From the NCBI GenBank assembly GCA_011939005.1, contig GCA_011939005.1_4858.1: a stretch of 64,000 bases of DNA; one strand, given 5' to 3'. The notes under the pieces were generated by a model, which saw only the letters and a program-made list of their open reading frames with translations, searched no databases and was not told the origin of the DNA. This stretch comes from a phage. Below are positions 26,706 to 29,765 of the stretch, piece by piece. A program made the translations under genes and the position numbers. Position 1 is the first letter of the stretch. Each line of letters starts with the position of its first letter.

Positions 26706-27446
26706 TTACTTTAAGAGATGCAAGAAGCGTGCTGCCTGTTCTGTAAAGTGAAAATACTCGATGGTATCAGGTTCGTCCGAGTGAATGTCGTCCGGGTCCA
26801 GCAGGTAGCCCGAGATATCATCCGTTAAAACCCAAGCGTCCCCTTGCAGGAAAATACCCATCGGTTTTTCTACCACGGGCATCACTAAGTCCGAATAAGA
26901 GTTACCTTCTGCTACCCTTACAATGTCTTCGCACGGGTCAACAATATACAGGTTGCAGAGACTGCGATCTTTAAGACTGCGATGAAACATCGCTCGATCG
27001 TACCAAATAACCTGAGAACAATTATCTTCGTCACCCGCCACATCGACCAACTCTGTCCAGAAACGATGTAAGAACCAGTTCAACGCACCGGTTATTAGCT
27101 CGTTCGGTTTCAGCATTCTAACGTGTTCGTCGTACAACTCTTCCATTGTCCAGATTCGACATTGCTCACGATCGATTGTCGGTAGCGGAGGTATTTGCGG
27201 CGGGACTTGTTTAGGCATCGGCTCATCACATCTTGCATTGTAACGCGCAATTGTTTCGGTAACCAGCTCTGCCACAACATCACAAGCCGCTTCAAATCCC
27301 CACTTGTACAACACGTCGTAATCTTCCATGGGCGCAGCACCGAACTCACGGTTCGTTGCCATCCACGACATCCATCCGTATTGCTCCACACAGTTAATCA
27401 GACTTTGTGTGTGGAGCGTGAGCGATTCACTCACGACTCGCAACAT
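26706..27446 (-). CDS. hypothetical protein
   Basis: ATG at 27446 has RBS gaagaagaggtg and sits just after the upstream stop; track start 27506 overlaps by 59 nt. Confidence 0.55.
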   Translation of the reverse strand: MLRVVSESLTLHTQSLINCVEQYGWMSWMATNREFGAAPMEDYDVLYKWGFEAACDVVAELVTETIARYNARCDEPMPKQVPPQIPPLPTIDREQCRIWTMEELYDEHVRMLKPNELITGALNWFLHRFWTELVDVAGDEDNCSQVIWYDRAMFHRSLKDRSLCNLYIVDPCEDIVRVAEGNSYSDLVMPVVEKPMGIFLQGDAWVLTDDISGYLLDPDDIHSDEPDTIEYFHFTEQAARFLHLLK

Positions 27447-27447
27447 G

Positions 27448-28962
27448 TTACACCTCTTCTTCTCGCAGTATGCGACGGTTTGCGTAATACGCACACCACA
27501 ACCCATGATACTCTTTACCGATATAGATTAAGAAGTAACGGATGTAGTATTTTTCAGGACGACACACCGCGATGTAATAACGGCCTTCCGGTTCTTTAAT
27601 ACGGTTGATTTCCGTACGCGATGGAATATCGATACCGCGAGTCAAAATAACCGAGACAGGTCGTTTACCCATCGGAAAGTCGATCTTTAACGTTATTGAC
27701 TTATCGACGCTACGGTAGTATTCCTTGACAGGTTTACCTTTGTCGTCGAATAGCAAGTCGGTAATGTCGTTTAAGACATAACCCTTTTCCTGATGCAGAA
27801 CATCTCTCAACGTTGTAGCGAGTTCGTCACGAATATCCAGCGCACGGTACGACAATAAGGGCGGGCGAAGCATTCTGGAGATGGCCAGGTCTTCAAAGAA
27901 CCAGACATTAGAATCCTCCCCACTGAAATGCATCTTGTCTGCCGGCAATCCGTCGCCTGCCACATCAACGAATTTCTTACGCTTAACGAACTCATTGTTA
28001 ACAACGCCAATTGGATCATACTGCCGCATCTTCGGTGTATCTTTCCATGCCAGGGCGGCGTGGTTGTTTACAATCGTGTAGATGTTATCCCACGGTTGTT
28101 TAGTGAACATTACGGAAAAGTGTGCATCGGGAATCATTTTCCCAATAAACACCAAGTCGTCCTTGTTCTTTGCATGGTTGCCACCAAACATGTAATAGAA
28201 AGTTTCATCTTTCACTTTTACAGTAGGATGGTCTTCGTTCACCAACGGATAGCAATATTTAACCGTACAAATCGGCGGATATGCCGCAAGGTTCATCCCA
28301 GCGGCGATGGGCTCGGGTTCCGCGGATGCAGGCAACTCATCCTTCGACCAGTACGGCTGATATGGAACACCGTCGTTGGTCGCGGTGATAGCTGAACCTT
28401 TTCTAGCCAATTCGTCCGCCCGGTCGTTACCGTAGTGGCCGGAGTGTCCTTTGATTTTGATAACCTTAACACCCCGTCCTTCTTTTTTCATCTGCTGTTT
28501 GATTTCCCAGATACGAACAATAAGTTCTTTGTTCGCCAGCGGAGTACCATCAGCACGAACCCAACCACGTTTATGCCAGCCGTCTATCCACTCGTTAAAA
28601 GTGTTTACAACGTAACTGGCATCCACGTAGATGATATAGTTCTTCGCACGGAATGGCGCATTCTCAAACAACGTGATGAAGGCGATTAACTCGCCCACAT
28701 CTGAGTAGAACTCTTTCGGAACGGGAATAACGGCGTCGACAAATTGAACGGTGTCCGGCAACTCCGGACACTTCACATCCTGCGGCACTTTTTTGTATCC
28801 AACAGTGGTAATCCGTTCTGAAACACCCGGATGGCTATAAGCCTGACTGTCTTCCAAATCTCCGTTGTTGAATAAATAACCATGAATACCAGCCCCCGAA
28901 CCTTTCGGGGACTCAGTATGACTACCATCGGTATAAATAACCGCTACGTCGACGTCTTTCAT
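27448..28962 (-). CDS. RNase HI-domain protein with long C-terminal extension of unknown function
   Basis: N-terminal ~190 aa: VIYTDGS, ELIAFI, YVDASYV, WHKRGW, KGHSGHYGNDRADELARKG (RNase HI signature); total 504 aa. Confidence 0.8.
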   Translation of the reverse strand: MKDVDVAVIYTDGSHTESPKGSGAGIHGYLFNNGDLEDSQAYSHPGVSERITTVGYKKVPQDVKCPELPDTVQFVDAVIPVPKEFYSDVGELIAFITLFENAPFRAKNYIIYVDASYVVNTFNEWIDGWHKRGWVRADGTPLANKELIVRIWEIKQQMKKEGRGVKVIKIKGHSGHYGNDRADELARKGSAITATNDGVPYQPYWSKDELPASAEPEPIAAGMNLAAYPPICTVKYCYPLVNEDHPTVKVKDETFYYMFGGNHAKNKDDLVFIGKMIPDAHFSVMFTKQPWDNIYTIVNNHAALAWKDTPKMRQYDPIGVVNNEFVKRKKFVDVAGDGLPADKMHFSGEDSNVWFFEDLAISRMLRPPLLSYRALDIRDELATTLRDVLHQEKGYVLNDITDLLFDDKGKPVKEYYRSVDKSITLKIDFPMGKRPVSVILTRGIDIPSRTEINRIKEPEGRYYIAVCRPEKYYIRYFLIYIGKEYHGLWCAYYANRRILREEEV

Positions 28963-29681
28963 TATTCTCCTCGCAACTGCGGTGGAATGTATTCACCTGT
29001 GCACATTTCGCGGTGAGCTTCTAACATGCGTTCGAAGCCGTACGTACGCGCGACCAGGGCCAAATGATAGATGCGTGCCGTAGAATACGCTTCCTTCGCA
29101 GCATCAAAGTTAGCGTTATGCTCGTACGCTTCTTTGCCGCGGGTCCAATGGTGCGCTTCTGCGTGCCAGTTCGGTTCCAGGCCAAACGCATATGCAATAC
29201 GTTCTGCAGTCCGGTCAGAGTCCAATATAGAAAACTTGCGGTACTTGCCCGGCGGGATATCGCACTGCGCGAATGCGTTCATCAGAATTGGAGCATCGAA
29301 ATCGGGACCACGCATGGTGATAACCATTTTCACGTTGCCCAGATCATCCAACCATTTTTTGGCCGCCCACAGCGCTTCTGGCAGTGGAGTGGTCCCAGAA
29401 AACGCTTCAATACGTGCTTTCTCGCTCGGTGCGTATTCGGGGTCGCCTTTACCTTCCCAATAACCGACCGTTTGTGGATCGATGTAGAAGATTTCTTTTG
29501 CTTTTGCATCATTGGGGTCGATTTTGTGGTAACATGAACCGATCATTTTCATTGTCGGAACATCGAATGCCACGTTTGCCAACGTTAAGATGTAGGCATC
29601 TGGACGTAAAGCCAGGGTCTCTAAGTCCGTCCCAACAACAACGGTGGGCGTTAAAACAGGCAGAATTTTAGGATATGTCAT
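28962..29681 (-). CDS. putative DnaQ-like 3'-5' exonuclease (T4 DexA-like)
   Basis: 239 aa; Exo I-like motif VVGTDLETLAL and further blocks (DFDAPILMNAF, AHHW) aligning by eye to T4 exonuclease A; stop overlaps RNase H start by 1 nt. Confidence 0.6.
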   Translation of the reverse strand: MTYPKILPVLTPTVVVGTDLETLALRPDAYILTLANVAFDVPTMKMIGSCYHKIDPNDAKAKEIFYIDPQTVGYWEGKGDPEYAPSEKARIEAFSGTTPLPEALWAAKKWLDDLGNVKMVITMRGPDFDAPILMNAFAQCDIPPGKYRKFSILDSDRTAERIAYAFGLEPNWHAEAHHWTRGKEAYEHNANFDAAKEAYSTARIYHLALVARTYGFERMLEAHREMCTGEYIPPQLRGE

Positions 29682-29726
29682 TTCAACTCTCCACGAGATT
29701 ATATATCACACTATTGACTATTAACG

Positions 29727-29765
29727 TAAAAAAGGAAATCCCCTCTTACCCGAAGGTAAGAGGGA
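29727..29765 (-). terminator. rho-independent terminator (UUCG loop on minus transcript)
   Basis: Stem ccctcttacc / ggtaagaggg with loop cgaa (29741-29764), A-run 29728-29733. Confidence 0.55.

Follow-up and report, generated by a model that had tools for sequence, protein, structure and literature searches.

The protein considered here has its described counterpart in gp155 of phage phiKZ, also known as Nlp2, a model cargo whose import into the phage nucleus depends on Imp1/PicA; phiKZ155 tagged with green fluorescent protein (GFP) is seen, like PicA, as a punctum at the edge of the nucleus. Gerovac et al. (Nature 2025) placed phiKZ gp155 in the Chimalliviridae core genome, found it to be RNase H-active in vitro and essential for nucleus maturation and genome amplification, and reported that the catalytically dead D102N variant still complements. 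We have compared it with a gene of 504 codons on the minus strand of a stretch of phage DNA of 64,000 nucleotides (contig GCA_011939005.1_4858.1 of GenBank assembly GCA_011939005.1), the whole of which is referred to below as the window. The gene occupies positions 27448–28962, with an ATG start and a TAA stop at 27448–27450, and is called here the Rhc (RNase H-clamp) gene.

For fifteen years, no polymerase processivity factor was apparent in phiKZ-like phages. Kazlauskas and Venclovas (2011) found their divergent polymerase and, by profile-profile methods, no clamp, a situation that they called "puzzling"; nor is a clamp loader known for these phages in the literature. The C-terminal domain of Rhc is the answer. 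Two preprints of 1–2 October 2026 bear on it, and are used here as far as their abstracts go. In that on phiKZ, the core polymerase is described as a complex of DNAP-N and DNAP-C, cryo-electron microscopy (cryo-EM) places a single Rhc subunit next to the thumb domain, where it sits on the duplex as it exits, and Rhc, which strongly boosts primer extension, is given as the clamp-derived processivity subunit of DNAP-N/DNAP-C. In that on phage Goslar, the abstract presents Rhc as a third subunit of the polymerase, essential and bound to DNAP-C, with RNase H catalysis and the clamp-derived domain both required, and adds that Rhc also supports late transcription, probably through R-loop resolution.

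We conclude, with a probability of roughly 0.85, that the product of the window gene is Rhc (phiKZ gp155/Nlp2) as it occurs in the SPN3US clade, an ortholog that belongs to the core proteins of the Chimalliviridae and is a polymerase subunit with a clamp-derived domain. The clamp explanation of this protein is already known from the two preprints, and the window contributes one more ortholog, not a new finding. Added here are an independent route to the same conclusion through structure prediction, family-wide statistics on the fusion and on its catalytic residues, and the coupling of Rhc, seen in one clade, to an additional exonuclease.

The source phage is SPN3US-like. In BLAST searches the Rhc gene is 98.6% nucleotide-identical to that of Salmonella phage SPN3US, where the counterpart, ACQ60_gp059, is annotated "ribonuclease", and the protein shows 100% amino-acid identity to one of Escherichia phage vB_EcoM_EC001. 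Seoulvirus, the genus of SPN3US, is placed in the Chimalliviridae, the nucleus-forming jumbo phages. Comparison with phiKZ155 by BLASTP gives 26% identity (residues 5–494 against 3–476, E 8e-38) in a single collinear segment that runs across both domains. Rhc of phiKZ (gp155/Nlp2), PhiPA3 (gp176) and Goslar resembles the window protein in its two-domain architecture, length class and phage family, and shares with it a similar neighbourhood and a divergent B-family polymerase (PolB) partner in the lineage. In this clade and in phiKZ-type genomes alike, a virion structural gene of divergent orientation precedes the Rhc locus. Full-length relatives of 22–26% identity were found by tblastn in phiKZ (gp155), Phabio, RSF1, SA002, Deimos-Minion and other phages, and at least 185 phage records hold a full-length Rhc; the fusion is therefore old and widespread and not peculiar to the source genome.

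The amino-terminal half of the argument concerns residues 1–200 (28363–28962, minus strand), identified as an RNase HI domain by PF00075, the NCBIfam RNase HI models and alignments with RNase HI structures in the PDB. A preliminary description of the locus, made from the letters of the window and their translations, had read a full RNase HI signature in this 504-residue open reading frame (ORF), and the signature is borne out. Pfam RNase_H (PF00075) spans residues 89–190 (E 8e-22), the TDGS motif forms residues 11–14 and KGHSGHYGNDRADELA residues 171–186, and the structures of Escherichia coli RNase HI and human RNase H1 align across residues 91–202 (E ~1e-12). Residues E91, D114, H173 and D183 superpose on E48, D70, H124 and D134 of the E. 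coli enzyme, and D12 corresponds to D10; their codons on the minus strand are D12, 28927–28929; E91, 28690–28692; D114, 28621–28623; H173, 28444–28446; and D183, 28414–28416. The basic protrusion of E. coli-type RNase HI (rnhA, PF00075) is likewise present, at W125–N144, and the whole domain was modelled confidently by AlphaFold2.

The window protein differs from E. coli RNase HI in its covalently attached domain of 276 residues, described below, and in a family-specific insertion of about 50 residues between the N-terminal strands (residues about 30–85; with H27 included, residues about 25–83, window 28715–28890). Within the insertion, H27 and G55-Y56 are kept in at least 93% of the family, and it is possible that this segment is a family-specific interface. 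Against the NCBIfam model NF001236, whose cut-off is 160 bits, the protein scores 70, and its 504 residues compare with about 155 for rnhA. On these sequence comparisons, we regard the window protein as sharing its catalytic domain with rnhA but as no rnhA equivalog.

Residues 229–504 (27451–28278, minus strand) constitute the clamp-derived C-terminal domain, of about 276 residues and alpha/beta composition, the second half of which is basic, with an isoelectric point (pI) of 9.0. At the sequence level it matches nothing recognisable, as had been stated earlier: 16 C-domain sequences gave no match to the clamp families of Pfam (PCNA, DNA_pol3_beta, gp45) or to any other Pfam family, and no match was found in NCBIfam or, by profile search, in the PDB. 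The view that its function is obscure nevertheless falls in the face of its homology to the phiKZ domain, its predicted fold and the content of the two preprint abstracts. Alignment of the C-domain profile (A2) with residues 200–482 of phiKZ155 by hhalign gave a probability of 97.2% (E 3.4e-11, 235 columns), and comparison of the predicted structure by Foldseek reveals a resemblance to DNA sliding clamps and processivity factors that takes in the ring-formers PCNA, 9-1-1, gp45 and the beta clamp; the PCNA chain of PDB entry 3p83 is match number 4. The model thus points to a fold derived from sliding clamps. The global template modelling (TM) scores against clamps are low, at 0.26–0.30, and would indicate an altered geometry relative to the ring clamps. 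The order of predicted secondary structure elements is clamp-like at residues 358–504 and incomplete at residues 229–357. Comparison of the two halves of the domain by hhalign returned a probability of 0.3% for an internal repeat, a test that is uninformative for clamps.

The most conserved positions of the C-domain are T401 (100%) and R449 (99%), followed by G274, P367, D399 and D445 at 88–93%; T401 and R449 are good candidates for mutagenesis. The conserved basic residues K275, R373, R449 and R475 are located on or beside predicted helices and strands, elements that in a clamp fold would face the DNA. We would expect the contacts with DNA and DNAP-C to involve R449, T401, D399 and D445-x-P447, or else the basic K275, R373 and R475. 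Overall, we conclude that the C-domain of the window protein is a clamp so diverged that structure alone reveals it.

The relationship to established clamps can be described more closely. No sequence similarity was detected to PCNA, the 9-1-1 subunits Hus1/Mec3, Rad1 and Rad9, T4-type gp45, E301R of African swine fever virus (ASFV) or the beta clamp. Unlike these ring clamps, Rhc acts, to judge from the phiKZ preprint abstract, as a single subunit with no ring and no loader, and the first beta-alpha element of the clamp domain is apparently missing or remodelled. The herpesvirus processivity factors (UL42 of herpes simplex virus, HSV; UL44 of human cytomegalovirus, HCMV; PF-8 of Kaposi's sarcoma-associated herpesvirus, KSHV; and BMRF1 of Epstein-Barr virus, EBV) are like the C-domain in fold only; they have no fused nuclease and belong to a different virus realm. 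The archaeal and eukaryotic tool-belt of PCNA with RNase HII or FEN1 (PDB 3p83) likewise brings RNase H activity to the replisome by way of a clamp. In that case a type 2 nuclease (HII) is attached non-covalently through a PCNA-interacting peptide (PIP) motif to a ring clamp, whereas Rhc has a type 1 nuclease joined by a covalent tether to a derived clamp that is monomeric.

By Foldseek, the C-domain is closer to four stand-alone viral proteins of clamp size in the BFVD than to annotated clamps (E 1e-9 to 3e-3): I1VX43 (233 residues), G4KKB4 (247 residues), A0A8S5P0T1 and A0A7T3KH11 (236 residues). In these, other phages may possess a module related to the Rhc clamp but free of the fusion.

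Between the two domains, residues about 201–228 (28279–28362, minus strand) form a putative flexible tether, acidic (pI 4.05), proline-rich and poorly conserved, with the sequence WSKDELPASAEPEPIAAGMN... The alignment of 24 close relatives (A1) that served as AlphaFold2 input runs from a conserved RNase H domain through a gapped, variable linker (~205–228) into a C-module with many invariant basic and aromatic residues. The full-length model has a mean predicted local distance difference test score (pLDDT) of 86 and a predicted TM score (pTM) of 0.57, and is poor in the linker only, where pLDDT is 54 or less at residues 207–228; modelled alone, the C-domain reaches a pLDDT of 89 and a pTM of 0.89. 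The low scores of the linker and the drop in pTM from 0.89 to 0.57 suggest two rigid domains joined by a flexible tether, which agrees with the unresolved, flexibly linked RNase H domain of the preprint account, as far as its abstract conveys it.

The same fusion is found in other phages, where the preliminary description had proposed to look for it. A profile of the C-domain alone, run against 1.84 billion cluster representatives, retrieved 475 at E<1e-3, nearly all of them full-length proteins of 480–560 residues in which the matched part lies at about residues 230–510. From these sequences, we take the RNase H-clamp fusion to be essentially fixed in the family, and the alternative that the earlier author had set against a novel domain, namely that the domain is a characterised one found regularly in fusion with RNase H, is the one that was encountered. 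Among the short matches examined, the clusters of P0066 and P0064 also hold full-length members of 497–501 residues, and P0077, which gave no RNase H match in Pfam, comes from a gene ending 15 bases from the end of its contig. A candidate stand-alone C-domain, in phage GXNNE2, was rejected, the tblastn match being confined to residues 242–504 while the annotated coding sequence encodes 503 residues, with an N-terminal part too diverged to be matched.

Conservation was assessed over 136 diverse representatives (alignment A3), which are about 20–25% identical to the query. D12 is retained in 94%, E91 in 98.5%, D114 in 97%, H173 in 96% and D183 in 97% of these, and all five catalytic residues together in 127 of the 136 (93%). 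The C-domain is as well conserved as the RNase H domain. At the level of sequence, this pattern argues for selection on RNase H activity, despite the result obtained with D102N in phiKZ155, whose D102 aligns with D114 here; the agreement is closer with the Goslar result than with a role that is purely non-catalytic. In five of the 136 (P0042, P0050, P0051, P0059 and P0105), several catalytic residues are replaced (GEDLL, FEVEL or HETMV for DEDHD) and the C-domain is kept; these may be catalytically dead variants of Rhc, or the product of alignment error. In two metagenomic homologs, P0157 (675 residues) and P0178 (761 residues), a DNA-binding domain of the I-TevI type lies N-terminal to the RNase H domain; P0178 alone has in addition a GIY-YIG catalytic domain, as a weak match below the Pfam cut-off. 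The arrangement suggests that a homing endonuclease has entered the gene at its start or become fused there.

The main functional partner of Rhc is the DNA polymerase, not the exonuclease encoded beside it. Genomes of the SPN3US type have an ortholog of phiKZ050 (PF20286, divDNApol) at 34% identity over 99% coverage, and polymerases of this kind occur in 306 phage records. Together with the placement in the Chimalliviridae, the ortholog points to a split divergent PolB in the source phage; the polymerase genes are located outside the window.

On the preferred reading, Rhc would be made from an operon of exonuclease, Rhc and the downstream gene gp058, whose translationally coupled junctions can be read from the sequence. 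It would then be imported into the phage nucleus, by analogy with phiKZ Nlp2. There the C-domain, a highly diverged, non-ring clamp fold, would dock as a single subunit on the C-terminal subunit of the split B-family polymerase and, with the polymerase thumb, hold the duplex leaving the active site, strongly stimulating synthesis; this step is transferred by homology and fold match from the phiKZ and Goslar abstracts. The RNase H domain would meanwhile cut the RNA of RNA:DNA hybrids (primers, R-loops) on template near the polymerase, as the activity of phiKZ155 in vitro and the presence of all the catalytic residues here, conserved family-wide, suggest. In this clade only, and more speculatively, a co-translated DEDDh 3'-5' exonuclease would further process the nucleic-acid products.

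Several points weigh against this assignment. The protein is only 26% identical to phiKZ155, and a function for the SPN3US-type protein is carried over by homology. Both Rhc preprints are un-reviewed, and their abstracts give no gene number; hence it is the unique architecture and the identical knock-down phenotype from which we infer that the Rhc described there belongs to the gp155 family. The order of predicted secondary structure suggests loss or remodelling of the first beta-alpha unit that a canonical clamp domain has. Finally, the essentiality of catalysis is disputed, since phiKZ D102N (D114 here) complements, whereas catalysis is required in Goslar according to the abstract.

Of the competing explanations, the most durable is suggested by the neighbouring gene. 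Directly upstream of Rhc, at 28962–29681 on the minus strand, lies a clade-specific gene of 239 codons for a predicted DEDDh 3'-5' exo(ribo)nuclease. The product matches PF16473 (Rv2179c-like 3'-5' exoribonuclease; 35.3 bits, cut-off 27) and phrog_255 (E 8e-53), and has the DEDDh motifs D19-x-E21 and H188-x4-D193. It thus shares with other Rv2179c-like DEDDh exoribonucleases an above-gathering Pfam match and the motifs, and differs from them in giving no sequence match in the PDB or NCBIfam and in its restriction to one phage clade. At the junction, GAGGAGAATAATG, a Shine-Dalgarno sequence within the exonuclease gene (GAGGAG, 28967–28972) precedes the exonuclease TAA stop (28962–28964) and the Rhc ATG (28960–28962), which share base 28962 as TAATG (all on the minus strand). 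The one-nucleotide overlap and the translational coupling to a DnaQ-like exonuclease that the preliminary description had noted are thus confirmed.

From this coupling it had been proposed that the two proteins form a dedicated processing pair. Worked out here, the proposal would make the removal of RNA and primers the primary role: RNase H would nick hybrids, the co-translated exonuclease would trim the products, and the C-domain would be a mere accessory for substrate binding or targeting. In favour of this proposal, the exonuclease gene immediately precedes Rhc at all the loci inspected, with exonuclease identity down to 33%, overlapping it in SPN3US and Cronobacter phage CR5 and adjoining it in Machina, phiEaH2, pEa_SNUABM_11 and Vibrio phage pVa-21, and a terminator-like hairpin lies just upstream of both genes. 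Its homologs occur, however, in only 65 phage records by tblastn (SPN3US-like phages, many Erwinia jumbo phages, CR5 and pVa-21), whereas full-length Rhc is present in at least 185 and the polymerase in 306. No exonuclease gene was found beside Rhc in the loci of phiKZ, RSF1 and SA002, where the block is otherwise similar (Rhc preceded by one or two small ORFs and, before these, the divergent virion structural gene), and tblastn detected none in the phiKZ or Goslar phage groups. The equal conservation of the C-domain and the RNase H domain also counts against a mere accessory, as do the identification of the C-domain in the preprint abstracts as the polymerase-binding part and the growth supported by the catalytically dead phiKZ mutant. 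We therefore consider the pair, as an account of what Rhc is, unlikely. As judged from these genomes the pairing itself is real but clade-specific, a feature by which the window clade differs from phiKZ, and no feature of the family.

A second explanation takes the C-domain to be mainly a module for nuclear import or shell docking, which would bind PicA/Imp1 and deliver an ordinary RNase HI, with no role as a polymerase subunit. The Imp1/PicA-dependent import of phiKZ155/Nlp2 as a model cargo and the peripheral, PicA-like punctum of the GFP fusion are what would be expected of such a module. The predicted fold of the C-domain, on the other hand, matches DNA clamps, and the cryo-EM and primer extension reported in the phiKZ abstract place the domain on the polymerase and on DNA; import and polymerase binding are, moreover, mutually compatible. 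We hold this explanation to be improbable.

Still less probable is that the C-domain closes into a canonical dimeric or trimeric ring that encircles DNA and needs a loader. Its fold similarity to PCNA, 9-1-1, gp45 and the beta clamp would allow such a ring, but the phiKZ abstract has one Rhc subunit per polymerase, no clamp loader is known in phiKZ-like phages, and the low global TM-scores speak for an altered geometry. An artefactual fusion, in which a sequencing error or frameshift has joined two genes, and for which the split ORFs in some SPFM records might be cited, is effectively refuted by the same architecture of 480–560 residues across hundreds of independent genomes and metagenomes, by the intact ORF in 34 close relatives and by the fragmentation of the SPFM records along their whole length, which marks assembly errors.

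The last point deserves some detail. The Rhc ORF is unbroken in 34 related genomes at 97–100% nucleotide identity, and PHROG phrog_3265 covers the protein end to end (E 1e-189); it is on these two grounds no chance reading frame. The preliminary description had also allowed for a frameshift splitting the ORF, which finds no support. In the records of SPFM1, 8, 9, 12, 14 and 20 (LR535901, LR535906 and others), the gene aligns by BLAST in 23–24 pieces, and the annotation divides it among hypothetical proteins. These split ORFs look like the result of assemblies rich in indels along their whole length rather than of a real frameshift.

The clamp-derived polymerase subunit remains our preferred identity for Rhc, and the exonuclease can be considered in relation to it. 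We tentatively suggest that the replisome of the SPN3US, Erwinia, Cronobacter and pVa-21 phages has gained a fourth, co-translated component, an exonuclease that works with or binds Rhc, although we think this unlikely on balance. Host nucleases are excluded from the phage nucleus, and the exclusion would extend to host RNases and oligoribonuclease. Possible roles for the exonuclease are the degradation, within the nucleus, of RNA oligomers set free by the tethered RNase H domain, or the trimming of 3' ends at the polymerase. An exonuclease partner is not mentioned in the phiKZ and Goslar accounts, as represented by their abstracts. The exonuclease was also considered as the DNAP-N (exonuclease) subunit and rejected, as it has no similarity to phiKZ gp082/gp050 and belongs instead to the DEDDh Rv2179c-like family.

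The gene downstream of Rhc (26706–27446, minus strand) encodes 246 residues matching phrog_9472, to which no function is assigned. Its start follows the SPN3US annotation (ACQ60_gp058), which begins at M21, window position 27446, of a mechanically called ORF of 266 residues (26706–27506) that overlaps the 3' end of Rhc. With this start the gene begins one base after the Rhc stop (TAACATG), and a Shine-Dalgarno-like GAGGTG lies inside the end of Rhc; the downstream gene is therefore probably co-translated. A consensus scan placed the terminator-like hairpin, with an 11-bp stem and a T-run, at 29740–29765 on the minus strand, between the preceding gene and the exonuclease gene, where it probably marks the start of the exonuclease-Rhc transcription unit. 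With the hairpin upstream and such tight junctions, exonuclease, Rhc and downstream gene look like a tightly coupled unit.

An AT-rich stretch (…GTGATATATAATCTCG…) follows the hairpin about 20 nucleotides before the exonuclease ATG, within 29682–29765 on the minus strand, and may be a promoter for a phage RNA polymerase at the start of the unit. A scan for sigma-70 promoters returned fewer sites than shuffled controls; since these phages, moreover, use their own RNA polymerases, the scan is uninformative.

The same or nearly the same protein (the cluster of P0001 and P0179–P0192) is encoded on contigs of about 240 kb in the assemblies of many Salmonella enterica isolates, and one sequence of the window-protein cluster recurs on 69 contigs. 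SPN3US is also mentioned in a preprint on virulent phages that persist in bacterial isolates. We take these contigs, from their sequence, to be whole SPN3US-like phage genomes that travel with bacterial isolates.

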